The translations under genes and the position numbers were made by a program. Shown one piece after another: positions 13,123 through 44,281 of a DNA stretch of 64,000 nt. The notes below the pieces were generated by a model. That model worked only from the letters and a program-made list of their open reading frames with translations, was not told the origin of the DNA and searched no databases. This stretch comes from an uncultured Fibrobacter sp. (GTDB lineage Bacteria; Fibrobacterota; Fibrobacteria; Fibrobacterales; Fibrobacteraceae), in NCBI GenBank assembly GCA_934700345.1, contig CAKUXP010000002.1, positions 50,515 through 114,514 on the forward strand, given 5' to 3'. The first letter of the stretch is position 1. Every line of letters begins with the position of its first letter.

Positions 13123-13364
13123 AGTATCGACTCCATTTTTTCAAATGATAGCATTTTTGTGCATTTTGCGGACTTTTTGCGGCAAAAGAGCGGATATGTG
13201 GCAAGTTTTTTTTGTTCCAAGCAGGAATATTCAAGAGGTTGCAGGGCTCAGTAATTCGTTGATAGTAGGGATAACTCAGAAGCCAGAAGTTGGGTGATGT
13301 GTGAGGAATTGGCTGCCGAGCGGACTTTCCATGTCCCGAGTCCCTCGTACCGCTTTTCGAAAAG

Positions 13365-13399
13365 CCTAGACGTCTGCGGACTAATCCCTAATTTCTCAT
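13365..13399 (-). repeat. Dispersed copy (reverse orientation) of the AGACGTCT-centred repeat family that is clustered at 20.7-21.6 kb
   Basis: cctagacgtctgcggactaatccctaatttctcat matches the reverse complement of atgagaaattagg...ttagtccgcggacgtctaag found at 20703-20752 and 21083-21132. Confidence 0.45.
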
Positions 13400-13606
13400 G
13401 TTCTCGACCGTCCGCTTCCTAATTTTAATTCTTCTCCGACAGGAAAATTCAAAAAGCGTGTTTTTGCATACAGAAATGCGTTTTAAATGGTTTGTAAAAA
13501 TTTTGAAACATCTTTTTTCGTGGAAAATCTCGAAAATAAGTGATATTTTAATTATCTATGTATAGTATAGTCAAAACTCCGGGTCCGGAGTTACTAGAGG
13601 ATTAAA

Positions 13607-17956: not shown

Positions 17957-17988
17957 CGGTCAAGGAATTTAACCAAGAGGATTTGTCG

Positions 17989-19257: not shown

Positions 19258-19291
19258 AAATCAGAATTTTACTCCGAGGTAGGAATTTTCA

Positions 19292-29647: not shown

Positions 29648-31294
29648 TCATCTAGCGACTCGCAATGACCGGAAAGGTTCATTTGCATATCTGTAACAAA
29701 GTATGTAAGTGCCGCGTTGCAAACCGGATTTAGCACTTTCCCAAGCTTCCGAGGCGGATTTAGCTGAAACTTTAGACGATTTGAGTAGCTGTCCGTTAAG
29801 GTCGAATACCTGAATATGGAGCTCTTCGAAATTTACGCTTCGCCGATAGTTTGGAGTAATTTTGTCTAGGCCTGTGATTTCGAACAGGATTTTGTCGATA
29901 TTTACGTAGCTGTCGTCAATTGACAATCGAAGTTTTTGTATTCCTGGCGAAAGTTCTAGCTTGCCGGCTTCCACTTCGGAATAGGAGTCCCAGTTTTCTC
30001 CGCCTGGAATTTTTGCCTGTAGGCTTTGTTCCCCGATGGAAAGTGTTACGGACGATTCGTTCGTGTTCCCTGTTGCTCCCCATACGCTTATTGCGTATTT
30101 GCCCTTTGTTTTGACATTTAGCGTGTATTCAAAAAAGTCTCCGGTGGTTGTATAGCCTAGCGCAAATCCTTGGCCTGCTTTAACGACGCCAGCATCGTCT
30201 GTTCTGTAGCCTGTCGAGTCGCTTTTCCCGTCAGCGTCGCGAAAGGCGTTTATGTCGTAGTTTTCGGCTTCGATAATTCCTGGAATTTCAATCGGTCCTT
30301 GAAAAGGAAGGGCTTCGATTACGGTAGTCGTGTCGGAAACGTTGGCGACGACGATGTCCCCGCCATTGGGAATTGCATCGAAATAAATGTAGCCGTCGCG
30401 AAGTTCCGTTTCTAGAGGCGAACCTTTTTGAGTCGCCTTTACCGATTGCCAGTTGCCCGCATTTTTTATTCGGATGGAGAGCGGGTAGTCAAATTTAGAA
30501 AGGGATGTCTCCAGGGAATGACTTAGACGATAGGTTTCGCTGTTGGCGTTGCCTTCGATTTTGGTGATTTTTGCCGCATCGCGTTCTTTGGAATACATAA
30601 TCGCATTTCGAAAGGTCGTTACCCAGATTTTAGAATCGTTCTGCTTTGCCCAGCTTAACGCACCGTCGATTGCGGATGAGCTTGTAGGGGAATAGCCGCT
30701 ACCCTCGTCCACCTCGTGGATTAAGAAAGTTACCCAGCCGTTTTTATTGATCGCTTCCTGCATTTTTTGCTGGAAAGCCTGCGCGCTGTTTACGTTTCCG
30801 GTGTTTCCGCAGATGATGGAACTTATCCTGTTGTAATTTTGAGGCGTCTTGCCGTCGATTTGGCCGCTGCAAATTCGTCCGCCGATGTAGTTTTGGGATA
30901 TTAGAGATTCGTTCGGTACATTGCAATTAGGATATGTAATCGTATTGCAGGATTGGTTTGGAATTCGACTTTCGATAGTCTTCTTGGACGATGCGATTTC
31001 GTTATCGGGCATTGTTTGGGAATGTGTATCGGAGTGGCTGCCGATTTCGTATCCCCGTTCAACGAGTTCCTTGTATTTGCTGTAATTGGGGCTCCAGTTG
31101 TTTACGATATAAAAGCTAGCCTTATAACCGTATTTGTCAAAGATGGGGACGGCAATTGTCAGCTGGTTGGGAAGGTTGTCGTCAAATGTAAAAGTAGCGA
31201 CTCCGTTCCGAAAACCCGACCAGATCGCAATTTCTTGGGTCCATAGGAAATTCGAACCGAGTAAAAACGTTATGGTAAGGAAGATCTTTTTCAT
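29648..31294 (-). CDS. Secreted CE4 polysaccharide deacetylase with a CBM6/35-like domain and a Por (T9SS) type-A C-terminal sorting domain
   Basis: Signal peptide MKKIFLTITFLLGSNFLWTQE at the internal ATG 31294. TFDDN and SHSDTH are NodB/CE4 motifs. A galactose-binding-like segment (GDFFEYTLNVKTKGKYAISVWG). C-terminal ...IQVFDLNGQLL...GTYILCYR... resembles T9SS CTDs. The gene is visibly AT-richer than its neighbours. Confidence 0.65.
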   Translation of the reverse strand: MKKIFLTITFLLGSNFLWTQEIAIWSGFRNGVATFTFDDNLPNQLTIAVPIFDKYGYKASFYIVNNWSPNYSKYKELVERGYEIGSHSDTHSQTMPDNEIASSKKTIESRIPNQSCNTITYPNCNVPNESLISQNYIGGRICSGQIDGKTPQNYNRISSIICGNTGNVNSAQAFQQKMQEAINKNGWVTFLIHEVDEGSGYSPTSSSAIDGALSWAKQNDSKIWVTTFRNAIMYSKERDAAKITKIEGNANSETYRLSHSLETSLSKFDYPLSIRIKNAGNWQSVKATQKGSPLETELRDGYIYFDAIPNGGDIVVANVSDTTTVIEALPFQGPIEIPGIIEAENYDINAFRDADGKSDSTGYRTDDAGVVKAGQGFALGYTTTGDFFEYTLNVKTKGKYAISVWGATGNTNESSVTLSIGEQSLQAKIPGGENWDSYSEVEAGKLELSPGIQKLRLSIDDSYVNIDKILFEITGLDKITPNYRRSVNFEELHIQVFDLNGQLLKSSKVSAKSASEAWESAKSGLQRGTYILCYRYANEPFRSLRVAR

Positions 31295-31387
31295 GATTTG
31301 TTCCGATAAATTGGGTGTGGTTCCTCTCTTGAGATAAATCTTTTTTTTTTGAAATGACCGTGGCGTTTTGCTTCTTTTGTTGTATAG

Positions 31388-31409
31388 AACTACAACAAAC
31401 AAAAGTTTT
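31388..31409. promoter_or_regulatory. Perfect 8-bp inverted repeat TTGTTGTA-N6-TACAACAA in the divergent promoter region between the deacetylase and SPFH genes
   Basis: Read directly from the sequence; the surrounding region is AT-rich. Confidence 0.35.
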
Positions 31410-31463
31410 TTGCCTTTTTTCCAAAATTTTGTGTAAATTTTTGAAAAAAAAAGGAGTTGCACG

Positions 31464-32537
31464 ATGGGCATTCTAGATAAGCTAAAAGGCGAATTCATAG
31501 ACATTGTCGAATGGATTGAGAATGAGCCCGATGTCCTGGTATGGCGTTTTCCGCGTTACCAGAATGAAATCAAGGACGGGGCGCAGCTCATCGTTCGCAA
31601 AGGACAGCTTGCTGTCTTTGTCGCAAACGGGAAGGTGGCGGATGTCTTTTCGCCCGGGATGTATGAACTGAAGACCGAGAACCTGCCGATTCTTTCGACG
31701 ATTCTCGGCTGGAAATATGGATTTCACAGTCCATTCAAGGCTGAAGTCTATTTCATCAGTACTCGTTGCTTTATTAATTTAAAATGGGGAACGCGCAATC
31801 CCGTCATCGTTCGGGATGTCGCGCTTTCCATGGTGCGCATACGGGCTTTTGGCTCTTACGTGATCAAGGTGCAGGAACCGCGGATCCTGATTCGCGAACT
31901 TATCGGAACGCAAGGAAAGTTTTCCGTGGAGACGATTTCGGAACAGATTCGGAACCTGGTTGTTTCGAGTTTTGCGGATGTTGTCGGCGAAGCGAAGATT
32001 CCTGTGCTGGATTTAGCTGCTCATTATGACGAGCTATCGCAAAGATTGCTAACAAAAATTTCCGATGAGGTTAAGTCTTATGGGTTGATTTGTACGCAAA
32101 TGAAGGTGGAGAACATATCTCTTCCCGAAGAGACGGAACGTGCGATCGACAAGAGGGCGGCGATGAGTGCTGTCGGGGAATCGGATTTCTCTCGGTTTCA
32201 GGCTGCGATGGCTGCGGAAGCCGCTGCGAAAAATTCCGGGGAAGCCTCGGGCGGAATCGGGCTTGGCATCGGAATGGGAATGGCGCAGCAGGTCGCTCGG
32301 ACGTTTTCCGCTCCGCCTCCGTTGCCGCAAGCGGAAACGCTCTGGTATTACGCGGACGGAAATGATCGCCGAGGTCCTGTCCCGCAGAGCGAACTGAAGC
32401 GTCTCATCGAAACCGCTGCCATCGGGCGGAAAACACGGCTCTGGCGAGAGGGGCTTCCCGATTGGAAATTCGCCGGGGAACTTCCCGACTGGAAATTGCT
32501 CTTCCCGATGGAACCGCCCCCGCTTCCGAAGGACTGA
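31464..32537 (+). CDS. SPFH/band-7 domain protein (Band_7_1 / virion-core-like) with a C-terminal GYF-like (DUF4339) domain
   Basis: N-terminus MGILDKLKGEFIDIVEWIENEPDVLVWRF is typical of PF13421-type SPFH proteins. C-terminal TLWYYADGNDRRGPVPQSELKRLIETAAIGRKTRLWREGLPDWK is GYF/DUF4339-like. Confidence 0.65.
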   Translation: MGILDKLKGEFIDIVEWIENEPDVLVWRFPRYQNEIKDGAQLIVRKGQLAVFVANGKVADVFSPGMYELKTENLPILSTILGWKYGFHSPFKAEVYFISTRCFINLKWGTRNPVIVRDVALSMVRIRAFGSYVIKVQEPRILIRELIGTQGKFSVETISEQIRNLVVSSFADVVGEAKIPVLDLAAHYDELSQRLLTKISDEVKSYGLICTQMKVENISLPEETERAIDKRAAMSAVGESDFSRFQAAMAAEAAAKNSGEASGGIGLGIGMGMAQQVARTFSAPPPLPQAETLWYYADGNDRRGPVPQSELKRLIETAAIGRKTRLWREGLPDWKFAGELPDWKLLFPMEPPPLPKD

Positions 32538-32542
32538 TTCCG

Positions 32543-33187
32543 ATGGCGACCTGTAAATATTGCGGTGCGCCGCTTCTCGAAAACGTTCCGGTGTGCAGCT
32601 ACTGTCACGCAAAAATCGATGTCGATCTTTCGGCGAAAGGTTTCCAGACGGTCCATGCTCCGGAAAAATTTCGGATATGTCCGGTTTGCAAAAAGGAAAT
32701 GAATGTTTTAAACATCGGGCAGAAAGGCGATCCGTTTTTCATCGACCGCTGCCCGACATGCCTCGGAATTTTTCTGGATACCGGAGAGCTGGATGCGATT
32801 GTCCGCGAAACGGTTCCGTCCGTTCGCCACGTCAACATGGAAAAGTTGAAACAGTTGAAACGCGAAATGCTTGATTACAACAAGACGGTTTCCTATCGGG
32901 CGTGCCCGGTTTGCGGAAAGCTGATGAACCGGGAGAATTACGGAAAGTTTTCAGGCGTTATCGTCGATCGTTGCCGAGAACATGGCGTCTATCTGGATGC
33001 CGGGGAATTGCAGTTGATTCAGCGTTGGGTGGCTGCGGGCGGGAATCTGCAGACGCTTCCGGAGCCCTGTATTGCGAAACGTGCGGATGCATTCCGTCGG
33101 TCGGAACCTGAAGCGGATGTTTTCAAGAGGCGCTCAGCAAGATCCGTCGATTGGCTTCTCCAGAAACTGGTGGATTTGATATTCTAG
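32543..33187 (+). CDS. Double zinc-ribbon protein (two zf-TFIIB-like CxxC...CxxC modules)
   Basis: ATG at 32543, 3 nt after the SPFH stop. CKYCGAP...CSYCHAK; CPVCKKEM...DRCPTCLGIFLDTGELDAI; CPVCGKLM...DRCREHGVYLDAGELQLI. The second and third pairs match the zf-TFIIB (PF13453) pattern. Confidence 0.55.
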   Translation: MATCKYCGAPLLENVPVCSYCHAKIDVDLSAKGFQTVHAPEKFRICPVCKKEMNVLNIGQKGDPFFIDRCPTCLGIFLDTGELDAIVRETVPSVRHVNMEKLKQLKREMLDYNKTVSYRACPVCGKLMNRENYGKFSGVIVDRCREHGVYLDAGELQLIQRWVAAGGNLQTLPEPCIAKRADAFRRSEPEADVFKRRSARSVDWLLQKLVDLIF

Positions 33188-33748: not shown

Positions 33749-35170
33749 ATGTTGGAAAAACTCTTTAAAATCACCGAGAACCGTTCTAGCGTTCGAACCG
33801 AAATCCTGGCGGGTCTCACCACGTTCATGACGATGGCGTATATCCTTGCGGTAAACCCCAGCATCCTTTCCGCTTCGGGAATGCCCAAGGGCGGCGTTTT
33901 TATCGCGACGGCTCTCGCGGCGGCTCTTGGCTCGACGCTGATGGCGCTCTTTTCGAACTATCCCTTTGTCCTCGCTCCAGGTCTCGGGCTGAACGCGTTT
34001 TTCTCCTACACGGTTGTCATCACGATGGGATACAGCTGGCAATTTGCCCTGCTTGCCGTCTTTGTCGAAGGCATTGTCTTTCTTGCGCTTTCGCTCACCT
34101 CTGTCCGGGAAAGCCTTTTCAACGCGATTCCGCTTTCGCTCAAGTCCGCCGTGGCGGTGGGCATCGGGCTTTTCATCACGTTCATCGCGTTTCAAGGGGC
34201 AAAGATTGTCGTCAATTCCGATGCGACGCTCGTAACGGTCATCAACTTCCACCGGGCGGATTTTCACACGACGGGAATCTGGGCGCTTCTCGCGATCATC
34301 GGGACGATTGTCACGGGATTTCTCGTTTCGAAAAAAATTCGGGCGGGAATTTTGCTCGGCATGTTCATCACGTGGTTTCTAGGCGTTCTCGCGGAACTTG
34401 TAGGAATCTACGTGCCGGATGCTTCCAAAGGATTTTTCTCCGTGGTCCCGCATTTTGGAAACTACTTCAGCGATTTGGGCAAGACTTTTTCGGAATTCGG
34501 GTCGATAGCCTTTGCCATTTTCCATCCGTCGTCTTGGACGCATTCGGTAAACGGCGCCGTGGATTTTTCGGGCTGGACCCTCGTCAAATCCTTGGACTTC
34601 TTTGTCGTGATGTTCGCCTTTTTCTTTGTCGATTTGTTTGATACGCTCGGAACGCTCATCGGCGTTTCGCTCAAAGGCGGCTTCCTGGATGCGAACGGAA
34701 AGCTTCCTCGGATTTCGGGCGCCCTCTATGCGGATTCCATCGCGACTTCGGTTGGAGCCGTTCTCGGAACTTCGACCACGACGACTTTTGTCGAAAGCGC
34801 AGCGGGCGTCGCCGCCGGGGGAAAGACCGGGTTCACGTCCATCTTCGCCGCGTTCCTGTTCATTGTATCAATTGTTTTCGCTCCGGTATTCTTGGCGATT
34901 CCCGGGTTTGCGACGGCTCCGGCCCTGGTCATTGTCGGCTTTTACATGATAAGCTCCGTATCGAAAATCGAGTTCAAGGATTATTCCAAGGCGATTCCCG
35001 CGTTCCTGTGCATTGTCGCGATGCCTCTAACCTACTCGATTTCGGACGGGATCATGTTCGGCGTAATCTCCTACACGGTGCTGAACTTTGTCCTCGGAAA
35101 GCGGAAGGATATCCATTGGATCATGTACATTCTGACCGTGCTCTTCGTGCTGAAATACGCTTTGATGTAG
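33749..35170 (+). CDS. NCS2 family nucleobase permease (AzgA/PbuG-like adenine/guanine/hypoxanthine permease)
   Basis: ILAGLTTFMTMAYILAVNPSIL and an ~14-TM architecture typical of the AzgA subfamily. Adjacent to apt. Confidence 0.8.
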   Translation: MLEKLFKITENRSSVRTEILAGLTTFMTMAYILAVNPSILSASGMPKGGVFIATALAAALGSTLMALFSNYPFVLAPGLGLNAFFSYTVVITMGYSWQFALLAVFVEGIVFLALSLTSVRESLFNAIPLSLKSAVAVGIGLFITFIAFQGAKIVVNSDATLVTVINFHRADFHTTGIWALLAIIGTIVTGFLVSKKIRAGILLGMFITWFLGVLAELVGIYVPDASKGFFSVVPHFGNYFSDLGKTFSEFGSIAFAIFHPSSWTHSVNGAVDFSGWTLVKSLDFFVVMFAFFFVDLFDTLGTLIGVSLKGGFLDANGKLPRISGALYADSIATSVGAVLGTSTTTTFVESAAGVAAGGKTGFTSIFAAFLFIVSIVFAPVFLAIPGFATAPALVIVGFYMISSVSKIEFKDYSKAIPAFLCIVAMPLTYSISDGIMFGVISYTVLNFVLGKRKDIHWIMYILTVLFVLKYALM

Positions 35171-35190
35171 CGAATCGTTTTTTGGAAAAG

Positions 35191-35218
35191 GACCGTCTTG
35201 CTGGCGGTCTTTTTTTTT
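35191..35218 (+). terminator. Rho-independent terminator after the permease gene
   Basis: GACCGtcttgctggCGGTC followed by a 9-T run. Confidence 0.6.
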
Positions 35219-35240
35219 GTGTGCACAATGCTTTGAAAAA

Positions 35241-35354
35241 TCGTTTCGACTTGTTATATTTCGATTCTCATAAAGAGGTTTTTAAATCAATGCATTTACG
35301 CGTCTTTTTCCTGTTGCTTCTTGTGTCCCTGGGGAACGTTCTTGCCGTGCAGTT
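35241..35354 (+). repeat. Cassette X copy 1: 5'UTR + RBS + signal peptide (MHLRVFFLLLLVSLGNVLAVQ), 114 bp
   Basis: 112 of 114 positions are identical to 36731-36844. The two copies are fused to completely different downstream coding sequence. Confidence 0.9.
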
Positions 35355-36366
35355 GCCCCAAGCGGTTTTTGCAGTTGGAAAGACTCAATACATAGAAACA
35401 GAGAAAAAACAAAACTACAGAATCTGTCTAGAAAATAATCAAAAAGGATTTTGGGATGGATCCATTCCGTTTGTGATGTCGACGGAAAATTGCCTTTTGG
35501 TGACCACTCCAAATCGAACAGGAAGTTTTTTGTTCGTACACTTTAACGATTCGATTTCCTCAGATAGCATTTGGCTTTTAAACAACCAAAAATTAATCGA
35601 TTTGTCAAAAGACGTTCATTTGTTGTGGAGTTTGGATTCCGTTGTTGGACCGTTCAACAAAAGACGCGTGTATGGTTCGTATAAAGCGACTCGATTGAAC
35701 AAGATTCTTGTCGTCGATCGAACGGAAGCGACGGTTGGCGAAGTAAAATATCTGTGTGATTATTTTGGAGTGGCTTACAAAGCTTCTAATTCGTGGTATC
35801 CAGACAATAACGCGTTAAATCATCCCGATATGCCACAAGATCCGGGGTTTGCCACAGTTCCTAATTACGCTAACAATAGAAGTAAACTGGAAGGTTTTGA
35901 AATTTCTTCGTATGCAAACGGAGCGGATACAACCAAAAACGGGTATCGGCTTCCTACTCGAGATGAATGGGTTGCTTTACAGAGAGGCGCTTCTAAAAAA
36001 GATTATTATTGGGGAAATGACACGGATTCACTAACCATTTCCCAATATGAATGGTATAGGTCCGCCAAGGAACGAGTTCATGATGTCGGGTTGTTGAAAC
36101 CAAATCCGTACGGATTATATGATGTCATGGGAAATGCGATTGAATACACTTTACAGGGACGCGAATGTGTCAGCAAGGATGAAAAATCTCGAGAATGCTT
36201 TATAAAAGACGATTTAAAACAACACGAGGCAAAGAACGTTTGCTATACGCGTATAAAATATAATGCGGATAAAAAAATACAAACAAAGGAGTGTCGTGTC
36301 GGATTTTCCCTAAACGAATTTTGGGGCTTCAGATTGGTCCGCCAGCTTTTTATAGATAATCATTAG
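35290..36366 (+). CDS. Secreted FGE-sulfatase/SUMF1-domain protein (paralog A), AT-rich body
   Basis: Signal peptide from cassette X. NGYRLPTRDEWVALQRG, PNPYGLYDVMGNAIEYT and C-terminal GFRLVRQLF are hallmark FGE-sulfatase domain motifs. The true start is the ATG at 35290; the track ORF from 35008 overlaps the permease. Confidence 0.7.
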   Translation: MHLRVFFLLLLVSLGNVLAVQLPQAVFAVGKTQYIETEKKQNYRICLENNQKGFWDGSIPFVMSTENCLLVTTPNRTGSFLFVHFNDSISSDSIWLLNNQKLIDLSKDVHLLWSLDSVVGPFNKRRVYGSYKATRLNKILVVDRTEATVGEVKYLCDYFGVAYKASNSWYPDNNALNHPDMPQDPGFATVPNYANNRSKLEGFEISSYANGADTTKNGYRLPTRDEWVALQRGASKKDYYWGNDTDSLTISQYEWYRSAKERVHDVGLLKPNPYGLYDVMGNAIEYTLQGRECVSKDEKSRECFIKDDLKQHEAKNVCYTRIKYNADKKIQTKECRVGFSLNEFWGFRLVRQLFIDNH

Positions 36367-36683
36367 ATGGTAAAAAACATGAAAGCCAAAATAATTCTTT
36401 TTCAAGCCTTGACGGTGTTGGCTTTTTCGGTGGTGGCCGAAATGTCTCGCTTCTTTCATGCTGCCTATACTATATTTTTCTGTAAAGATAAGTTTTGCCG
36501 ATGTTACGAAAACCAATGGGATTGTCTGCATCGTCTGTCGGAAGAGAGCTGCGCGGATCCTGAAATGTGGAGGATTGACTGATGAAAATTTTTACTTGGT
36601 TCACCGTTCTTTTTCTAGTATTGAGCGAAGTCTTTGCGCTGGAGTACAATGCCGTATTCAATGCGAAGGGTGTGCCGCTTTGA
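36367..36683 (+). pseudogene. Two gene remnants. The first is the 5' end of a paralog-B-like gene (MKAKIILFQALTVLAFSVVAE...). The second is a truncated paralog-C-like start (MKIFTWFTVLFLVLSEVFALEYNAVFNAKGVPL*) preceded by cassette Y.
   Basis: ggtaaaaaacatgaaagccaaaataattcttttt parallels ggtaaaaaccatgaaaatcaaaataatccttttt at 41477. Positions 36504-36673 are ~88% identical to 42876-43046 (cassette Y plus the first ~30 codons of paralog C), then stop abruptly at TGA 36681-36683. Confidence 0.55.
36504..36673 (+). repeat. Cassette Y copy 1: 5'UTR (GGAGG RBS) plus start of a paralog-C-like ORF, truncated
   Basis: Read directly: acgaaaaccaatgggattgtctgca(t/c)cgtctgtcggaagagagctg(c/t)gcggatcctgaaatgtggaggattgac(t/c)gatga(a/g)aattttta... 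is shared with 42876-43046. Confidence 0.85.
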
Positions 36684-36730
36684 AAAAAAACGAAAACTAG
36701 TCTTTTTTTTGTAAACAAAGTTTTGGAAAT

Positions 36731-36844
36731 TCGTTTCGGCTTATTATATTTCGATTCTCATAAAGAGGTTTTTAAATCAATGCATTTACGCGTCTTTTTC
36801 CTGTTGCTTCTTGTGTCCCTGGGGAACGTTCTTGCCGTGCAGTT
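36731..36844 (+). repeat. Cassette X copy 2
   Basis: See copy 1. The two copies are 1490 bp apart. Confidence 0.9.
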
Positions 36845-39797
36845 CCCCCATTCGAAATGGAACCTCGCCACCTATCACGGAGCCTACGCGATATTCGGCG
36901 AGGGCTTTGTCTCCGTGACGGACGGAGGCTCCGACTATTGGCATGTGCAGCTGACTAGGAGCGGCATCGAGCTGCGTGCCGGGAAAACCTACGAAGTACG
37001 GTTCTTCCTGCAGGGCGTAAGCGCGAGGCGTTATGTGGAGGTCCGCATCGGCAGGGACGGTTTTCCGTACGACGCGTTTGCCGAGTTCGGCGAGGTCGTG
37101 GCGACCGCGAACGGAAGGACGGTGACGAGAACTTTCACGATGCAGTCGGGAAGCGTAAGCAACGCCCGGTTCGAGTTCAATCTGGGCAAGGCTACGGGAA
37201 CGGTATATGTCGCCGACATTAGCCTGGACTGCCTCGATTGCGGCGATGATGTCGGAGCCGGCGATTTGCCGGTGTTTCCCGGGGAAAACCTGGACTATGC
37301 GGTCGTAGCCGATACGGTCGATTTCCGGGACGGCTCCATGTCCTTGGGGAGCGTGTTCGGGACAAGGCTTGAACTGGGGGCGGACTCCAAAGTCTTCGGC
37401 GATGTCGATGTCGCGGCGGCGTGCTTCCTTCGGGAACGCACAAAAATTGATGGCGGCTTGCGCTACGGGCGTCCGTGCGCGGAGCAGAACGGCGTGTCCG
37501 CGAAGACGAAAAGCGCCGCCAAACTATCGAAACCCGCATTCGGCGTCCCGAATATCGTTCCCGGGATTTCCCCGGTTTCTGTCGGATTGAAACAGTCCGC
37601 CGAGCTTCCTCCCGGGAGTTACGGGACTTTCTATGCCGCGGCGAAGTCCAGAATCCGTTTTTCTTCGGGAGCTTACGCGTTCCAGTACTTTTACACGGAA
37701 CCCGATGCTGAAATAATTTTTGACTTGTCCGCTGGGCCGGTTACGGTCGGCGTGTCCGGAAGCGTTCGCTTTGGCGACAGGAACCGGTTCTCCGTTATCG
37801 GTGGAAACCCGAGCGAAATTTTGTGGAACGTTTCCGGGGAAAGAGTCGATATGGGGACCGACGGCCTTTATTTCGGAAAATTTGTCGCCCCGGATGCCTG
37901 CGTGCGCATCCCCTCCCGTTCGCATCTCGTCGGTGGCGTCTATGCGAGAAAGTTCGCGATCGAGCCGCAATCGACCGTGTCCAGGGAACCTCGCGCCAGG
38001 GAAATCTCCCACAGCGAAGAGCACTTCGGGCCATTTTTCGAACCGGGAAGGTTTCGCTACCGTTCCCAGGTTTCGCCTTCCCTGTCCAGGATAGAGATGT
38101 TCGTCTATGCGGACAGCCTCCAGGTCACGGTGAATGGAGGCCCTTCAAGGGTCGTTGAGCTTTCGTCTTCGGAAGTTTCTGTCAAAGTGTCGCTCAGGCG
38201 GAACCCGGTGGCGGGGTTCCCTTCCGAAGCGTTCCGCAGCAGCTATCGGTTTGACTTTCTGAAAAATGCGAATTACCGCATCTACTGGAATCCGCAGACG
38301 CCGTGCAGGCAGGGTTGCGACGGGATGACCGCGGCGACGGCCGTCGGCGATTTTGGAAAGGCTCTCGAAACGGCAAGAACGACCGGTCGGGAAATCAACA
38401 TGGCCGGCGGGACCTGGAACGCCTCGGAAAGTTTCCCGGACAGCGTCGTCTCCTGGAAAGTGGGCTTCGAGCTTGTCGGCAACACAGAAAACCTGGGGGA
38501 CCTGTCTTCCGAAAACGACCTGCCCCTGATCGATTTGGGAAATGCCTCCCACATCGAGATAGAGGGGCGCTCTCCGCGCAGCCTGACCGGTTTCCGCATC
38601 GCGAACGGATACAATGCCGGTGACGGCGGCGCAATTTATTCGAACAGCCAGAAGCTCGGGCTTAAAAATCTTCTGGTTTCTTCGTCAAAATCTGGAGGTG
38701 CTGGCGGTGCGGTCTTTGCTTCCGATACGATAAATTTGGAAAATGTCCGTATTTTAAAAAGCTCGTCATTTGGAAACGGAGGAGCTGTTTCTGTCGGCGG
38801 ATTCGCAAAGTTTCTCAACGTTCTGTTTACGGAAAATACTTCTGCAAAAAATGGTGGGGCGCTTGGATTGAATGGTGCAAATGCTTATATTGGAAATGGC
38901 ATATTTTATGGAAATCGATCCGGACTTTCTGGCGGAGCGGTTTACAATGAAAATTCTTTGCTCAATATATGGAATTCAACGTTTTTTGCAAATTTGGCAA
39001 CTACGGCAAACGGAGCTCTTGGGGGAAATGCAAAAGGAATGATTGGAAATAGCATTTTTTGGAAAAATATCACTTCTAAATGCAGCTCAGAAGATTGTTC
39101 TTCGGAGGTCGTTGTTGGTTATTCCGCTACAAATTCCTCCTTTACAAATGCTTATGTTGGCAATAACATTTATGTTGGTGATCCGAAGTTTGCGGATGAA
39201 AAAAATCCAGAAGGCAGAAATGCATATATGGATTATGATGCAGGAATCAACTTGTCCGAGGACTCTCCTCTTTTAAAAGCGGGAATAGCGGATATAAATG
39301 TTCCGACTGACGATTTACTGTCGGAAATTCGAAATATGGCGAATATTGCCTTGGGTGCCTATGCGTATGCAAAACCTAAGCGTGAAACATCTTTTGGTGT
39401 ATTAGATAAGGATGGATCGGTTGTTTCAATAAAGCCTTCAATTCCCTTGATAAATGCAATTTCTGGAGATTATTACAGGGAATATCTAGCGACATCGCCT
39501 TATGCTCGTGTTTGGAAGGCGACGGTTAAAAAGCACAAGAAAACAAAAAAAGATAAGGCTCATGTCAAAATGTGGGTAGTGAACAGACGTGGTGAAAAAA
39601 TTACAAAAGAACCCGTAGAATTTGAAGTTTACCGAAATGGGGAAGAGAACGGTCGCTATGTATTTCAAACGATGACCAAAACTGCCGGTAAACCGGTTTT
39701 ATTTTCGATGCGCCCTGAAGATGCTGGAAATTATAAGGATGCTATTGTTTTATATATGAAGTCTGTTTCTGATTATTTCTATTACGAGGCGGAATAG
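36780..39797 (+). CDS. Large secreted surface protein (1006 aa): N-terminal CBM4/9-like domain, central repetitive region, parallel beta-helix with Pmp/GGA-type repeats. The C-terminal ~380 aa are compositionally distinct (AT-rich).
   Basis: Signal peptide from cassette X (ATG 36780; the track ORF from 36723 includes UTR). The CBM-like region is WHVQLTRSGIELRAGKTYEVRFFLQG. The beta-helix shows repeated GGAIYSN / GGAGGAVFAS / NGGAVSVG / NGGALGLN / SGGAVYNE. G+C drops abruptly near 38640. Confidence 0.6.
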   Translation: MHLRVFFLLLLVSLGNVLAVQFPHSKWNLATYHGAYAIFGEGFVSVTDGGSDYWHVQLTRSGIELRAGKTYEVRFFLQGVSARRYVEVRIGRDGFPYDAFAEFGEVVATANGRTVTRTFTMQSGSVSNARFEFNLGKATGTVYVADISLDCLDCGDDVGAGDLPVFPGENLDYAVVADTVDFRDGSMSLGSVFGTRLELGADSKVFGDVDVAAACFLRERTKIDGGLRYGRPCAEQNGVSAKTKSAAKLSKPAFGVPNIVPGISPVSVGLKQSAELPPGSYGTFYAAAKSRIRFSSGAYAFQYFYTEPDAEIIFDLSAGPVTVGVSGSVRFGDRNRFSVIGGNPSEILWNVSGERVDMGTDGLYFGKFVAPDACVRIPSRSHLVGGVYARKFAIEPQSTVSREPRAREISHSEEHFGPFFEPGRFRYRSQVSPSLSRIEMFVYADSLQVTVNGGPSRVVELSSSEVSVKVSLRRNPVAGFPSEAFRSSYRFDFLKNANYRIYWNPQTPCRQGCDGMTAATAVGDFGKALETARTTGREINMAGGTWNASESFPDSVVSWKVGFELVGNTENLGDLSSENDLPLIDLGNASHIEIEGRSPRSLTGFRIANGYNAGDGGAIYSNSQKLGLKNLLVSSSKSGGAGGAVFASDTINLENVRILKSSSFGNGGAVSVGGFAKFLNVLFTENTSAKNGGALGLNGANAYIGNGIFYGNRSGLSGGAVYNENSLLNIWNSTFFANLATTANGALGGNAKGMIGNSIFWKNITSKCSSEDCSSEVVVGYSATNSSFTNAYVGNNIYVGDPKFADEKNPEGRNAYMDYDAGINLSEDSPLLKAGIADINVPTDDLLSEIRNMANIALGAYAYAKPKRETSFGVLDKDGSVVSIKPSIPLINAISGDYYREYLATSPYARVWKATVKKHKKTKKDKAHVKMWVVNRRGEKITKEPVEFEVYRNGEENGRYVFQTMTKTAGKPVLFSMRPEDAGNYKDAIVLYMKSVSDYFYYEAE

Positions 39798-39799
39798 CG

Positions 39800-41476
39800 A
39801 TGTTTGGAGATTTGGTGAAATGGTGTCTGCTTCTTTCTTTTTTTATGACTTTGATTGCTTGTGATGACGACAAGGTCACTGGGAATACGCGTAAAGAAGA
39901 TTGCGATGAAAGCAACAACCCAAATTGCTATAAGACTATACCGGGAGTTTCTCCGATAAGTGGTGATTATGATTATAAGTCATATGATGATGGGGATGTG
40001 GTCACGTTCCAATGGGACCAGACGCTGGCTTGGTTTCTTCAATCCGAAAATCACCAATATGGTTATGATCGAGATCCTTTTTCAAATTTAGAAGATTATG
40101 TGGAACGCGGAAAGGATGTGTATATGTCTGTCCTAAAAGGTGAAATGGCAAAAGTGAAAATTGTTGTAGACCAAAATTCAAAAAAGATTTATCGAGTGCA
40201 TCGAATTAGTGAAAATAAAGAAATTTTAGAAAAAAATATTATCGTTGGAACGGATGTGTGTCAAGAAAAAAGCTGTGTAAAAGAATACGCCTTGCCTGTT
40301 GGACATTATGCTGTATTTTATGATGAATTGGATAAAAAAAGATATTTGCACATAATTGAATACTCAAAAAAGACGAACGATATTTATTTTGTGCAGCTTG
40401 GAGATGAATATGGAAATACATGCAATATCGGAAATGCTAATGGATGTTATACCAAGAAATCTGTTCAGGACAATTATAACCGAGTGATGGCTCAGGTGGT
40501 AACTGAGGGAAATTTTATCGAAGTCGATCCGACAAAGATGGATTTGGAAACGGCAGGACCGAATAACATTCTTATTGTTGATTTGAATAGTACGAAAGAC
40601 TCAAAATTACCGCTTGTCAATCAAATCTATGATAAAATTTTAGCAAGCAAGGAATTTGGCTATGGGAATGAAGAGGAAAAATATAACGAGATTAGAGAAA
40701 AATATGAAAACGGTGAAGTAGATGTTTCTATCTTCAATTATGCTGTCGAAGCTTATAATTCCGCTGTGTTACGGCATCGGCAGAAGCATATTGTTTTAGC
40801 GATTAACGAAATGCGGATACGATGGAAATTTTTTATAGGGGATGATTACTCTTTAGGCAATTTGAGTGCGTTTGAACGCGCTTGTGAAGTGGATGAAGAT
40901 GTTTGTCAATCGGGTTCTTTGGCTATGACATTGGAAAGTAGCTGTGGCGATAAGGACGTCCCTATAAAATTGAGTGTTGCAAAAACAAAAGACAACGATC
41001 AGTTTATTCCTAAGATTTCTGGATTTGGGGCTTTAAAAAATGGTTGCGAATACAGTATCTATGCGGATGTTTATCCTTTTGTCCCCGATGATCCGAATGC
41101 CGCCCAAATAACCATCACTAACTATAAATCGGAAAAAGATAAAACGGTAATTGGTGGCATGGTATGGGGAAGTCATTTGAATGGTTCTGCTTCACTGAAT
41201 ACGATTGTTCATGAAATCGGTCATTCGTTTGGTTTGACGGATTTACATAAGGATCCAAATGACCCTTCCAATGCTCCAGAACGTTATTACTATTTTGCCT
41301 TTAATGAAGGCAATATCATGGCGAGCTATGTGCCGTCCGGAGAACGGCTTCGTTATCGACCGCTTTTTGTTGTAAATACGGGGACTAACGATAGGATTCT
41401 TTTAGGAAATGGGTGGTATGCCACCGAAAACCAGTGGGATTGTGTCCGTTCAACAAGTAAATGTTATAAAAAGTAG
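39800..41476 (+). CDS. AT-rich lipoprotein with an HExxHxxGxxD putative zinc-metallopeptidase motif
   Basis: Lipobox FFMTLIACDDD. HEIGHSFGLTDLH near the C-terminus. Starts 3 nt after the previous stop. Markedly AT-rich; the ORF itself is confident but the function is not. Confidence 0.5.
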   Translation: MFGDLVKWCLLLSFFMTLIACDDDKVTGNTRKEDCDESNNPNCYKTIPGVSPISGDYDYKSYDDGDVVTFQWDQTLAWFLQSENHQYGYDRDPFSNLEDYVERGKDVYMSVLKGEMAKVKIVVDQNSKKIYRVHRISENKEILEKNIIVGTDVCQEKSCVKEYALPVGHYAVFYDELDKKRYLHIIEYSKKTNDIYFVQLGDEYGNTCNIGNANGCYTKKSVQDNYNRVMAQVVTEGNFIEVDPTKMDLETAGPNNILIVDLNSTKDSKLPLVNQIYDKILASKEFGYGNEEEKYNEIREKYENGEVDVSIFNYAVEAYNSAVLRHRQKHIVLAINEMRIRWKFFIGDDYSLGNLSAFERACEVDEDVCQSGSLAMTLESSCGDKDVPIKLSVAKTKDNDQFIPKISGFGALKNGCEYSIYADVYPFVPDDPNAAQITITNYKSEKDKTVIGGMVWGSHLNGSASLNTIVHEIGHSFGLTDLHKDPNDPSNAPERYYYFAFNEGNIMASYVPSGERLRYRPLFVVNTGTNDRILLGNGWYATENQWDCVRSTSKCYKK

Positions 41477-41485
41477 GTAAAAACC

Positions 41486-42856
41486 ATGAAAATCAAAATA
41501 ATCCTTTTTCTCGCCATTGCGGTGCAGGCCTTTGCCGCCAAGGATTCTCTCTACGAAATCAATGGAACGGTTTTTAACAAGGAACACGGGCCGAGAGGTC
41601 CCAAGGCGATAGTCAAGGTTTCCCGTACTGTACCGAGGATAAAGCCGCTCCGCGCAAGCGAGGATTCGTTTCAGGTTTCCTTGAGAAAAGGTGGAGATGA
41701 GCGTTGGCTTGAAATGGAAAAGAATACGGTCTATTCCGTCTGTGTCGATGATGATGGCGGCTTTTGGAAAGTTGAAGATTTCAAGTACGAAAAAGAGGGA
41801 AGTTCATGCATTAGATTGCATTCCGGGAATTACGTGAAAAACGGGAAAATTCAGTATGCGACCAGGATGGGCAACGGTTACACTTTTCAGTTGTTGGTCG
41901 GAATGAAGTACATCGATCTCAGGGGGAAAAAACATCTTTTGGGGTATTTAGAGCTGGGCGAAGGCTTCTATTACAAGGAAGGCCTTTGGTATCCGATCGA
42001 TCCGGGAAGGTACGAAGCTATGGACAAGGTTCTGGCTGTGGATAAGTATATGGTCACCGAATGCGAATTTGTTCAGGCTCTGTGGGACTCCATTCCTGCG
42101 CAAGCCAAAAGGGAGTACCAGAGGAATCATCCCTTTTGGATAGAGAAAAAAAAGACCATGACGAAAAACGGATTTTGCGATGCGCATGATTCCGCGGTGG
42201 TCCGTGTCAATTTGTACTATGCCCTTGTCTATGCGAATCTTCGAAGTGTTCGGGACGGTTTTCAACCGGTCTATTCTTTCGAATGGACGGATAATGGATA
42301 CGGCCTTGCGGAAGACGGCAGCTTTGTCATTTCCGATGTCAATTTTCACGTAGAAAACTCGGCTGTCCGCGTGAGGATAGATACAAGCGCGAACGGCTAT
42401 CGTTTGCCCTATTACGATGAATGGATGGCGTTGGGACGCGCCGGACATGATTATACGTTTTATGTATGGGGCCGTGATGGCGATTCCGCAATTGCCGCTC
42501 GGCACGCTTGGTTTGGCGTCCGGGACCCGGAAGACAAGTATTTAAAAATGAACAGGAACGATTGGAATGAACGAAGCCGCTTGGAACGTTCTTGCGGGAA
42601 ATGGCTACAAAAATCTAAGCCGGTAGGAATGCTGAAACCGAATGACTACGGATTGTATGACATGTTTGGTCTTGTGTGCGAAAACGTTATCATGGAAAAA
42701 CACCAGGTATATTTCCATGGGGTTGCGGCTACCTGCAAGGGCGGCTTTTTGGCGGATACCCTCAAGGCGTTGAACTTTAAAGCGAAGTGCAGGACTGATT
42801 TTTTTGATCCGGAAAGACTTTTCCAAGGATTGCGCCTGGTCAGGCAAATCAAGTGA
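41486..42856 (+). CDS. Secreted FGE-sulfatase/SUMF1-domain protein (paralog B)
   Basis: Signal peptide MKIKIILFLAIAVQAFAA. VTECEFVQALWD, ANGYRLPYYDEWMALGRAG, KPNDYGLYDMFGLVCENV and C-terminal GLRLVRQIK. Confidence 0.7.
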   Translation: MKIKIILFLAIAVQAFAAKDSLYEINGTVFNKEHGPRGPKAIVKVSRTVPRIKPLRASEDSFQVSLRKGGDERWLEMEKNTVYSVCVDDDGGFWKVEDFKYEKEGSSCIRLHSGNYVKNGKIQYATRMGNGYTFQLLVGMKYIDLRGKKHLLGYLELGEGFYYKEGLWYPIDPGRYEAMDKVLAVDKYMVTECEFVQALWDSIPAQAKREYQRNHPFWIEKKKTMTKNGFCDAHDSAVVRVNLYYALVYANLRSVRDGFQPVYSFEWTDNGYGLAEDGSFVISDVNFHVENSAVRVRIDTSANGYRLPYYDEWMALGRAGHDYTFYVWGRDGDSAIAARHAWFGVRDPEDKYLKMNRNDWNERSRLERSCGKWLQKSKPVGMLKPNDYGLYDMFGLVCENVIMEKHQVYFHGVAATCKGGFLADTLKALNFKAKCRTDFFDPERLFQGLRLVRQIK

Positions 42857-42875
42857 TGGTGCAAAATGTTGAAAT

Positions 42876-43046
42876 TACGAAAACCAATGGGATTGTCTGC
42901 ACCGTCTGTCGGAAGAGAGCTGTGCGGATCCTGAAATGTGGAGGATTGACCGATGAGAATTTTTACCTGCTTCGCCGTTCTTTTTCTGGCGTTGAACAAA
43001 ATCTTTGCGTTGGAGTACCATGTCGTATTCGATGCGAAGGGGCGGC
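42876..43046 (+). repeat. Cassette Y copy 2 (intact; drives paralog C)
   Basis: See copy 1 at 36504-36673. Confidence 0.85.
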
Positions 43047-44281
43047 TTATCGGAAAAACAGAGGGCTCGGCAAAGATCGGTTACGAGAATTTCGGGAAAG
43101 GCGCCTATTTTGTACTCCGTAAAGGCACTGCGGATAAAAAATCGCCGGAATATAAACGCTCCGTTCCCGCCTTAGAATCTGGTCGGACAAGGTGGTATGA
43201 GGCGGAAAAAAATGAACATGTCAAGATTTGCCCGTCCAATTCGTCGAGCGGAGGAGTTTGGCTTGCCAAGATTCAAGCCGAGGTGGATGCTTCAAACTGT
43301 CTCGGTGTCTTTACGGGTCAATTTGTCCGGAGTCTTTTCGCCCTGTATGTTCCGGACACTTTGAAAATGGAATCTGCGGATACGAGCTGGATTCTTGTCG
43401 GACAAAAAATCGCGCCCATTTCGAAGGGAACGCATCGTTTCTTCGAGGGGAAAGAAGCTCCGCTTCGAAAGATGCAAAATCCGGAATCGGGATATCGAGA
43501 TATAAATTTCTCTTATGATTTGATTGTCGATGCTATGGAGTTCCGTGTGGGCGATGCGGAATGGTTGATTGGTTCGGCTGAAACAGACTCTTTGATAGGA
43601 AAGGACTTGGATTTCATTGATGAACGGAAACTTTTTAACCGAAGTTCCTTGCCCATGGAAACATCGGAAATATATCGCCTGGCAAACGCCCGCAGCGCAC
43701 GTGACGGCCTAGATTCCGTGTACAGGCTTTTACCAAAGGATGTGTGGGAAAAAAGCGGGCTTCCCTTTTTGGACATTTCCGAACGGAGAAATTTAGTCCT
43801 TGTACTTGACACTTCTGCGAATGGCTACCGAGCGCCTTTTTTTGAAGAATGGGCCGCTCTGCAACGCGCAGGAGGTTCGGGAGATTTCTTCTGGGGTAAC
43901 GATAATTCTCTGTCTGGAGAAGCGATCAAATACGAACAACTGTTTGGGGATACGGCCTCTGCCTTTTGCCGTCCGTCGGGCCAAAAGACGCCGAATCCGT
44001 ATGGCCTGTACGATGTCTATGGAAATGCTTTGGAATATGTCTTGAAACGGTCCGTATCGTCGGGGCGTTATTACCACATGATCGAATGCCAAACGGATTT
44101 TAAATATGACCGCAGCCCGGTGTGTTCTCTGTTCTTTGACATGGTCGGCTACAGGGCGAGCAAGAGGCGAAAAATCTGCATCGGAGAGTTTGATGCAGAG
44201 GGAAATGTCTCCGAGACATGCACGCCCTATATGAAGCGGACCTTTGTCAAAGGCTTCCGCCTTGTGCGAAAGCTGCGGTGA
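42953..44281 (+). CDS. Secreted FGE-sulfatase/SUMF1-domain protein (paralog C)
   Basis: Signal peptide MRIFTCFAVLFLALNKIFA. ANGYRAPFFEEWAALQRAG, PNPYGLYDVYGNALEYV and C-terminal GFRLVRKLR. Confidence 0.7.
   Translation: MRIFTCFAVLFLALNKIFALEYHVVFDAKGRLIGKTEGSAKIGYENFGKGAYFVLRKGTADKKSPEYKRSVPALESGRTRWYEAEKNEHVKICPSNSSSGGVWLAKIQAEVDASNCLGVFTGQFVRSLFALYVPDTLKMESADTSWILVGQKIAPISKGTHRFFEGKEAPLRKMQNPESGYRDINFSYDLIVDAMEFRVGDAEWLIGSAETDSLIGKDLDFIDERKLFNRSSLPMETSEIYRLANARSARDGLDSVYRLLPKDVWEKSGLPFLDISERRNLVLVLDTSANGYRAPFFEEWAALQRAGGSGDFFWGNDNSLSGEAIKYEQLFGDTASAFCRPSGQKTPNPYGLYDVYGNALEYVLKRSVSSGRYYHMIECQTDFKYDRSPVCSLFFDMVGYRASKRRKICIGEFDAEGNVSETCTPYMKRTFVKGFRLVRKLR

Follow-up and report, generated by a model that had tools for sequence, protein, structure and literature searches.

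A sharp G+C switch within a Fibrobacter beta-helix gene as the probable edge of an exchangeable, strain-variable surface-protein cassette

What makes the G+C content of a bacterial gene drop abruptly within its coding sequence and stay low through the whole of the next gene? The question is raised by a locus of an uncultured Fibrobacter sp., lying in a 64,000-nt stretch of contig CAKUXP010000002.1 (assembly GCA_934700345.1, forward-strand positions 50,515 to 114,514), which we call the window and in which all positions below are counted. Two genes are concerned. One (36780–39797, + strand) encodes a secreted protein of 1005 amino acids (aa) with a predicted beta-helix, and is referred to here as the beta-helix gene; its open reading frame (ORF) opens with a TTG at 36723, and the likely start is the ATG at 36780, a choice that rests on the position of this ATG and on closest homologs that are also 1005 aa long. 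The other (39800–41476, + strand) follows after a spacer of 3 nt and encodes a lipoprotein of 558 aa. The reading that we favor, with a probability of about three in four, is that the G+C switch is the left edge of an old, hypervariable allelic surface-protein cassette exchanged through recombination in its flanks, and that this 2.8-kb cassette, made up of the tail of the secreted beta-helix protein and a zinc-protease-like lipoprotein, is a strain-variable module and not a toxin–immunity pair.

We computed the G+C profile in 300-nt windows, and the G+C content of first, second and third codon positions (GC1, GC2 and GC3) in frame. The profile stood at 0.55–0.62 over 36750–38700 and at 0.32–0.41 over 38700–41250. 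The fall was placed between 38550 and 38850, from about 0.58 to 0.39 at ~38640–38700, and low G+C persisted through the lipoprotein gene (GC3 0.33) as far as 41476. Within the beta-helix gene, GC3 was 0.66–0.80 up to codon ~625 and 0.26–0.36 from codon ~650, while GC1 (~0.5) and GC2 (~0.45) were nearly flat across the switch. Third positions were G or C in 424 of 600 codons before the switch (codons 41–640) and in 123 of 384 after it (codons 641–1024; chi-square p = 2.6e-32), and the maximum-likelihood change point of GC3 fell at codon 647, or nucleotide 38661, with a log-likelihood ratio of 73. Since GC3 halves while GC1 and GC2 barely move, the switch is an effect at synonymous sites and not an amino-acid effect; amino-acid composition was rejected as its cause, the change being confined to GC3.

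Averaged over its parts, the beta-helix gene has a GC3 of 0.69–0.71 at the N-terminal end, close to that of the neighboring SprA (0.70) and permease (0.68) genes, and of 0.32 at the C-terminal end. We therefore treat it as two parts, a conserved G+C-rich backbone part (36780–38640, + strand; GC3 0.71), which forms the left recombination flank, and a variable AT-rich 3′ part (38641–39797, + strand; aa 641–1024; GC3 0.32), called the N-part and the C-part below. The GC3 outliers of the window are this C-part, the lipoprotein gene and an accessory gene upstream, paralog A (GC3 0.37); the remaining ~40 long ORFs range from 0.48 to 0.71. An earlier note on this DNA, made by eye from the letters alone, had described an abrupt switch at ~38640 from 55–60% to roughly 40% G+C that takes in the whole of the lipoprotein gene. 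The windowed profile and the change point at 38661 agree with that description in position, size and extent, and the composition is far from uniform (GC3 0.71 versus 0.32).

The locus was compared with its counterparts, labelled L001 and so on, in Fibrobacter and Hallerella assemblies, which are mostly metagenome-assembled genomes (MAGs) and include the isolate F. intestinalis ATCC 43854. Against relatives of the same clade (L001, L003, L004, L005, L009 and L024), the backbone part is 89–96% identical in amino acids and about 90–96% identical in DNA. Blastn alignments with same-clade relatives run at 88–97% identity up to 38632–38641 (L001, L024, L008) or up to 38760 (L003, L005, L007), and from there to 41476 the window cannot be aligned with relatives that carry another cassette; beyond it, about 92% identity resumes. 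In the multiple alignment these breaks are sharp to within a few bases. The first left junction (38636–38642, + strand) lies just past the codons for GGAIYS and ends the homology to relatives of the L001/L024 type; the multiple DNA alignment, the blastn ends at 38641, 38636 and 38632, a protein change point at aa 641 and the GC3 change point at 38661 all support it. A second left junction (38745–38750, + strand), where homology to relatives of the L003/L005/L007 type ends, is supported by the DNA alignment (~38747), the blastn end at 38760 and a protein change point that three independent pairs place at aa 676. The right junction (41474–41476, + strand) coincides with the stop codon of the lipoprotein gene, where the DNA alignment and a blastn start at 41476 show that homology to other-cassette relatives resumes. 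The right recombination flank is the conserved FGE-sulfatase gene FGE#2 (41486–42856, + strand; Pfam FGE-sulfatase, E = 1.9e-11), which is 92% identical in DNA to L001 and L003 whatever the cassette type. The interval given in the earlier note from composition, 38640–41476, agrees with these independent blastn breaks at 38636–38642 and 41474–41476.

Between the two flanks, divergence is of another order. The loci L004 and L003 share 99.3% of nucleotides in an upstream flank of 11,968 nt and 99.2% in a downstream flank of 5,742 nt, and between these near-identical flanks they hold unalignable cassettes of 2.7 and 5.3 kb. Their synonymous divergence (dS) rises from 0.012 in the N-part to 1.32 in the C-part and 2.37 in the lipoprotein gene. 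Corresponding values are 0.085, 1.24 and 1.88 for the window and L005, and 0.007, 0.69 and saturation for L016 and L017. The window and L005, a Hallerella sp. MAG, share 96% of amino acids in the N-part, 40% in the C-part and 24% in the lipoprotein. Among close relatives in general, N-parts are 89–98% identical, C-parts 32–40% and lipoproteins 22–24%, and the DNA junctions are sharp. Orthologous loci do carry alternative C-terminal and downstream modules, then, and their C-parts are far less identical than their N-parts; the earlier proposal that the AT-rich stretch is a swapped module gains direct support from these figures. Four of the 120 full-length homologs of the beta-helix protein (P0004, P0021, P0024 and P0025) likewise show ~90% identity to aa 41–640 of the window protein and only 32–39% in aa 641–1024.

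The same mosaic recurs in other clades, where identities in N-part, C-part and lipoprotein are 100, 70 and 24% for L016/L017, 97, 36 and 32% for L014/L037, 95, 35 and 23% for L006/L045, and 92, 33 and 24% for L021/L014. Over 37 loci, many pairs are at least 90% identical in the N-part, yet 29–40% in the C-part and 22–34% in the lipoprotein. The reverse incongruence was also found, L001 and F. intestinalis ATCC 43854 being less alike in the N-part (67% identity) than in the C-part (76%) and the lipoprotein (71%). Pairwise identity in the N-part correlates weakly with that in the C-part (r = 0.25), and C-part and lipoprotein vary together (r = 0.82). A metagenome scan with the N-terminal part, meant to count cassette types in close relatives, gave only relatives of 60–71% identity, which display the same mosaic pattern in other clades. 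Several alleles that diverged deeply thus occupy a single chromosomal site between conserved flanks and are incongruent with the backbone, as is typical of a hypervariable allelic locus. What these alignments show is an allelic cassette that is replaced by homologous recombination through its conserved flanks, with one crossover inside coding sequence.

The left end of the replaced tract is not fixed. In aa coordinates of the window protein, left junctions were located at 585, 597, 637–641, 676, 685, about 797 and 886, and the tract usually takes in the last 140–440 codons of the beta-helix gene. A swap of the lipoprotein alone was seen in a single pair, L037/L038, whose lipoproteins are 50% identical. 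The variable left junctions and this lipoprotein-only swap indicate that the AT-rich lipoprotein gene is the core of the variable tract, which reaches a variable distance into the gene upstream. A change of lipoprotein class is always accompanied by a change in at least the last ~140 residues of the upstream protein. There are at least three allele classes inside the window's own clade and at least six across the family. All alleles share the architecture and the AT-richness; they align end to end at 29–47% identity and have the same predicted beta-helix and beta-sandwich fold. Alleles of the same class are under purifying selection (ratio of nonsynonymous to synonymous divergence, dN/dS, 0.08–0.17), and here the cassette is less diverged than the backbone (dS 0.15–0.23 versus 0.27–0.29; DNA identity 94–98% versus 87–92%). 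This would fit a spread of cassettes by recombination after the backbones had split, or alternatively a lower mutation rate.

Two contigs of one MAG (RGIG8517, water deer cecum), L026 1–700 and L031 1–700, both start at aa 517 of the beta-helix protein. They are 98–100% identical for ~350 nt and then become unrelated from the same junction as in the window, an assembly fork which suggests two cassettes in one sample and is consistent with coexisting strains. Several of the compared assemblies, of the CAV... series (L004, L007, L008, L013 and L024), are titled Senegalimassilia sp., Oscillospiraceae bacterium, Alistipes onderdonkii, Sodaliphilus sp. and Methanomethylophilaceae archaeon, respectively; their locus is clearly of the Fibrobacteraceae, and the labels probably mismatch the bins.

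Why, then, is the cassette AT-rich? In L001 and L003, whose alleles are different, the G+C switch is found again, and at an unchanged position in the gene. In the window's clade, GC3 is 0.68–0.74 in the N-part, 0.25–0.35 in the C-part and 0.23–0.34 in the lipoprotein gene; in lineages of lower G+C it is 0.25–0.50 in the N-part and 0.17–0.43 in the cassette. The GC3 of the lipoprotein gene was below that of the N-part in 37 of 37 loci. Because the same switch occurs with other alleles and the lipoprotein gene is AT-rich in all 37 loci, low G+C seems to belong to the locus itself, whatever the lineage, as in other long-lived flexible surface loci, and is not the trace of a single foreign donor. 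The N-part follows the composition of the host genome, and the cassette does not. The cassette keeps a GC3 of 0.2–0.35 in every lineage, and this gives rise to the abrupt switch in a clade as relatively rich in G+C as that of the window. The earlier note had also offered horizontally acquired modules; a one-off import peculiar to this genome is not supported.

We then considered what the two genes encode. The beta-helix protein has 120 full-length homologs (protein clusters from independent assemblies and isolates) in Fibrobacter and relatives. It consists, in order, of a Sec signal peptide, a CBM_4_9 domain (Pfam; aa 62–156, E = 6.9e-10), a conserved middle region, the beta-helix and a C-terminal beta-sandwich; a match to DUF7305 was weak. 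The variable 3′ part encodes a right-handed beta-helix with GGA/Asn-ladder repeats, a linker and the beta-sandwich (about aa 929–1024). In the AlphaFold model of aa 560–1024 (pLDDT 89), a parallel beta-helix runs from about aa 600 and is followed by a beta-sandwich of ~95 residues, and the predicted structure at aa ~600–860 has the pectate-lyase-like right-handed fold. Columns of the beta-helix that are invariant across alleles are almost all Gly, Asn or Ala, and no conserved constellation of acidic or basic catalytic residues was found across the compared alleles. The closest solved fold is Rhombotarget A of Acinetobacter baumannii (PDB 9cdu), with a sequence identity of only 14%. It is a protein of unknown function, and the one abstract in the literature search that names it concerns the design of macrocycle binders.

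POMP_repeat scored 13.7 bits on the beta-helix protein, under the cut-off of 15, and Chlam_PMP matches on its homologs were faint only. Unlike Rhombotarget A and Chlamydia Pmp-type beta-helix proteins with GGA(I/L/V)/FxxN repeats, the beta-helix protein lacks GlyGly-CTERM and an autotransporter barrel; chlamydial Pmp and autotransporter adhesins have a C-terminal beta-barrel translocator, whereas it ends in the ~95-aa beta-sandwich. A search for a type IX C-terminal sorting domain gave no Pfam or NCBIfam match at E ≤ 0.1, with models that may not cover the C-terminal domains of Fibrobacterota. A C-terminal beta-sandwich is predicted, and SprA sits 8 kb upstream.

The 558-aa product of the second gene has the lipobox LIAC, with Cys21 as the lipidated residue and CDDDK as the mature N-terminus. 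Its zinc-binding motif HEIGHSFGLTD (41210–41242, + strand; aa 471–481) is followed by an invariant Met507. Across 33 lipoprotein homologs, H471, E472, H475, G478, L479, D481, N505 and M507 are invariant, and HExxHxxGLxD is kept, with minor variants, in all complete alleles of every class (490–660 aa), while the remaining lipoprotein falls to 22–25% identity. The protein thus carries the extended metzincin motif HExxHxxGxx(H/D), and the catalytic-domain fold is present in the predicted structure; Met507, in an E.NIM stretch, marks a candidate Met-turn, around which the model is of low confidence (residues 497–512). Scores lie below the curated cut-offs for Reprolysin_3 (20.0 versus 22.4 bits), Reprolysin_5 (14.5 versus 27) and the M6 domain (18.3 versus 110.8), and when the PDB was searched with a profile of the lipoprotein, matches were confined to ~25 residues at the zinc motif (E about 0.03). 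The family is narrow, with 100 clusters (50% identity, E ≤ 1e-3) among 1.84 billion representatives. We regard the lipoprotein as a zinc-protease-like, metzincin-like putative protease. It differs from adamalysin/reprolysin-like metzincins (atrolysin C, ADAMs, fragilysin, ulilysin) in its third zinc ligand, which is Asp and not His, in its lipidation and in an extra N-terminal beta-sandwich.

In L036, a close relative (97–98% identical; run SRR27722926), a 16-nt tandem duplication (TATATGTCTGTCCTAA) at ~13340–13380, equivalent to window position 40120, shifts the frame of the lipoprotein gene. The next FGE gene of that locus is also split. Either pseudogenisation or an assembly error lies behind these changes.

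The signal peptide, the lipobox and many conserved cysteines lead us to infer that both products are extracytoplasmic. In Bacteroidetes, the signal for export of lipoproteins to the surface is an acidic stretch right after the lipidated Cys, C-X-K-(D/E)2 or SDDDD (PMC5080379), and the resemblance of CDDDK to this signal suggests surface exposure of the lipoprotein. The two products are thus probably surface-exposed and possible partners, a secreted glycan-binding beta-helix protein and an outer-membrane lipoprotein protease.

The gene order of the locus is SprA, permease, the beta-helix and lipoprotein genes, FGE-sulfatase genes and Rrf2. Crossovers fall on the left within the first, conserved 1.9 kb of the beta-helix gene (here at 38636–38642 or ~38747), and on the right at the lipoprotein stop codon or the start of the next FGE-sulfatase gene (41474–41486); homologous recombination at these points trades many deeply diverged, AT-rich alleles of the same architecture between strains. 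In the mechanism that we propose, old alleles of a putatively exposed surface would be maintained by balancing or negative frequency-dependent selection, exerted by phage, predators or host immunity, with the catalytic site preserved. Such selection on exposed structures is suggested because the alleles are old, discrete, found across clades and recently reshuffled among near-identical strains, with an active site preserved in otherwise diverged proteins.

Several points weigh against this reading. The acidic stretch after the Cys is found only in class-A alleles, and as an export signal it is established for Bacteroidota and not for Fibrobacterota (PMC5080379). Low G+C is not strictly tied to hypervariability, for the AT-rich FGE#1 gene is 93–95% conserved among relatives. 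The co-variation of the C-terminus and the lipoprotein could be a by-product of adjacency, as the genes are 3 nt apart with no conserved anchor between them. Finally, a strain-level chimeric assembly at a conserved stretch may have occurred in any single MAG contig; this worry is tempered by the recurrence of the pattern in independent assemblies and the presence of the overall architecture in isolate genomes.

Other explanations of the switch were weighed against the same data. If there had been no exchange at all, amino-acid usage or codon selection in a vertically inherited two-domain gene, or a chimeric assembly, would have to produce the pattern. The C-terminal module and the lipoprotein do have a somewhat higher content of Lys, Asn, Ile and Tyr (GC1 0.47 and GC2 0.33 in the lipoprotein gene), but the confinement of the change to GC3, a homology that stops within a few bases, a leap of dS from 0.01–0.09 to >1.2 across the junction and a full-length architecture in 120 independently assembled or isolate-derived protein clusters leave this account practically no chance. 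A single recent import of a low-G+C island from a distant donor is also very improbable. It could draw on a GC3 of 0.32 beside a genomic range of 0.48–0.71 and on the occurrence of type-A alleles in low-G+C Fibrobacter lineages (L006, L019, L021, L022); yet the nearest alleles of these lineages are only 56–65% identical in the C-part and 40–45% in the lipoprotein, no donor with >95% identity was found outside the clade, relatives with other alleles switch at the same site, the lipoprotein gene is AT-rich in all 37 loci, and no integrase, tRNA, IS element, phage or plasmid match was detected. We likewise give very little credence to intragenomic antigenic variation, in which silent cassettes would be converted into an expression site as in pilE/pilS. 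Some MAGs do yield two contigs with different C-terminal cassettes after an identical upstream stretch (L026/L031; L022/L028), but such a fork within one MAG is equally explained by coexisting strains, and in the 64-kb window both the C-terminal module and the lipoprotein gene occur only once. F. intestinalis ATCC 43854, the one isolate genome identified, returned a single locus, in a search whose patterns lay in the N-terminal and middle region and were blind to silent 3′ cassettes.

The remaining alternatives concern function. The earlier note had named first, as an example, the cassette exchange of polymorphic toxins; in such a system a variable C-terminus would be delivered to neighbors and traded together with a downstream immunity or modifier gene. 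The conserved N-terminal body, the sharp junction marked by GGAIYS, the variation of the C-terminus along with that of a tightly linked gene, and the lower G+C of the module all recall CdiA-CT/CdiI and its kin (PMC3482391), in which the C-terminus is replaced together with the next gene. Polymorphic toxins are, however, defined by toxin domains that are diverse and unrelated to one another (Zhang et al. 2012, PMC3482391), whereas the C-termini here align over their full length, share one fold and have invariant positions that are mostly structural (Gly, Asn, Ala). Pfam, NCBIfam and PADLOC gave no relevant toxin, immunity or defense family for the cassette genes; the downstream product is a lipoprotein of 490–660 aa with a conserved zinc-protease motif and no small immunity protein; delivery domains of the two-partner secretion (TPS), PAAR, LXG or Rhs type are missing, the protein having only the Sec signal peptide, CBM_4_9 and the weak DUF7305 match; and no orphan cassettes were seen within the window. 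A toxin–immunity pair is accordingly most unlikely. What stands of the proposed signature of C-terminal cassette exchange is the sharp conserved/variable junction and the co-varying linked gene (r = 0.82), and what falls is the unrelated toxin domains and the small immunity gene; the fallback offered in the note, a putative effector with a partner of unknown type, seems closer to the evidence. The main functional rival is an exchange of substrate specificity, in which a beta-helix that binds or cleaves glycans and a metzincin that cleaves (glyco)proteins would be swapped to suit plant or host substrates, without pressure from enemies. We consider it doubtful, given a beta-helix with no conserved catalytic acidic or basic residues across alleles, a best structural match of unknown function, divergence over the whole protein surface (22–25% identity) and beyond any binding cleft, and deep, discrete, cross-clade allele classes of a kind that balancing selection on antigens or receptors more typically leaves. 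Another idea, tentative at best, is that the variable beta-helix end and the metzincin lipoprotein form an allele-specific cognate pair, the protease docking to, processing or activating only its own partner, or that they serve strain-specific (kin) recognition at the cell surface. It agrees with the change in the upstream residues that goes with each change of lipoprotein class; if true, Fibrobacterota would have a polymorphic recognition system of two proteins that has not been described before and that differs from toxin/immunity systems.

The exchange of an old allelic surface-protein cassette, the reading that we prefer, describes an uncharacterized protein pair with genome dynamics of a known kind. 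O-antigen and capsule clusters are the textbook low-G+C hypervariable surface loci that are replaced through conserved flanks. The window locus is like them in its many old, unalignable alleles at one site, conserved flanks, backbone incongruence, sharing across species and AT-richness relative to the genome. It differs from them in that the cassette codes for one whole protein and part of another, and for no glycan pathway, and in that one crossover is intragenic and yields chimeric proteins. The layout also recalls phage tailspike and tail-fiber exchange, in which the N-terminal anchor is conserved and a receptor-binding beta-helix module is swapped at the C-terminus, often along with a helper gene downstream; the window locus is unlike it in being chromosomal, with conserved bacterial synteny, a Sec signal peptide and no PHROG match.

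Fibrobacteraceae are key fiber degraders in the guts of herbivores and humans, and little is known of their strain-level surface variation. The present locus is an unusually clean case, in which flanks are 99% identical and cassettes are old enough for synonymous sites to be saturated. The crossover within the gene builds chimeric proteins from a stable glycan-binding half and an exchangeable half. The locus points to a narrow, uncharacterized family of metzincin-like lipoproteins and its beta-helix neighbor as a likely interface with phages, predators, the host or substrates, and the cassette offers a ready strain marker. Low G+C here would mark an old flexible locus and no recent import, which calls for caution in composition-based island calling.

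We also searched the locus for traces of mobile elements. No tRNA was found, a repeat search of the window detected no direct or inverted repeats flanking the cassette, and there were no PHROG matches. The lipoprotein and the cassette had no match in viral contigs, a phage collection or plasmids; among the viral structures of BFVD only generic weak beta-helix matches were obtained (TM 0.44 or less), the best structural matches being bacterial proteins. The cassette is flanked by orthologous core-like genes. A genomic island on a mobile element was therefore rejected, with no integrase, transposase, tRNA, attachment repeats, or phage or plasmid carriage, and so was a phage origin. A promoter and terminator scan was uninformative, and a literature search gave no description of the locus or the family.

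Beyond the cassette, the orthologous synteny comprises SprA, two chromate-transporter genes, a polysaccharide deacetylase, a phosphoribosyltransferase, a xanthine/uracil permease, the beta-helix and HExxH lipoprotein genes, FGE-sulfatase genes and two Rrf2 genes; Fib_succ_major paralogs and SprA are contained in the window region. Paralog A (35290–36366, + strand; start ATG 35290) is an AT-rich accessory FGE-sulfatase gene, whose body (FGE#1) is joined to a second copy of the leader that opens the beta-helix gene. The G+C profile and the repeat comparison agree with the earlier description of its body as AT-rich and its leader as not. As the body is 93–95% identical to the FGE gene downstream of the lipoprotein gene in L001 and L003, paralog A belongs to the same flexible region and is translocated in this genome. 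The first copy of the leader (35213–35360, + strand), with a promoter-like site (hexamers at 35233–35260) and signal-peptide codons, is 93% identical to the second (36703–36850, + strand), which lies where the beta-helix gene starts; in L005 and L009 the leader is present only once. Compared with these two loci, the window has a 1.34-kb insertion (35359–36699) between the leader copies, which holds a 60-nt copy of the FGE#2 start (36367–36426) and a copy of the fge3 upstream and start region (36504–36687; 86% identical to 42875–43058). It looks like an integration, or an unequal crossing-over, through the leader repeat.

The site between the permease and beta-helix genes (window ~35170–36720; L001 7485–9758; L003 7502–9952) is variable in general. 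It is empty in L005 and L009, holds a minus-strand gene of 757–816 aa (weak Peptidase_M6, DUF4859) in L001 and L003, shows a gap of similar size in L004 and contains paralog A in the window and L036. A few kilobases upstream of the cassette, an SPFH/Band-7 and GYF-domain gene (31464–32537) and the next zinc-ribbon ORF (together 31417–33130) are present in L005, L007 and L036 and absent from L001, L003 and L004, which makes them a second presence/absence polymorphism. The adjacent polysaccharide deacetylase/CBM6 gene (29648–31504, − strand) has 79–83% DNA identity to L001, L003 and L004, versus 88% for its neighbors, and a GC3 of 0.49, the lowest of the flanking genes. Farther upstream, a gene of the AIPR (abortive-infection phage-resistance) family (13607–15490) lies beside a G+C dip (0.456 at 13001–14000), and the region 13000–15490 may be a small defense islet. 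Three tandem paralogs with the Fib_succ_major domain occupy 16820–20596, with an unusually high GC skew of 0.18–0.29.

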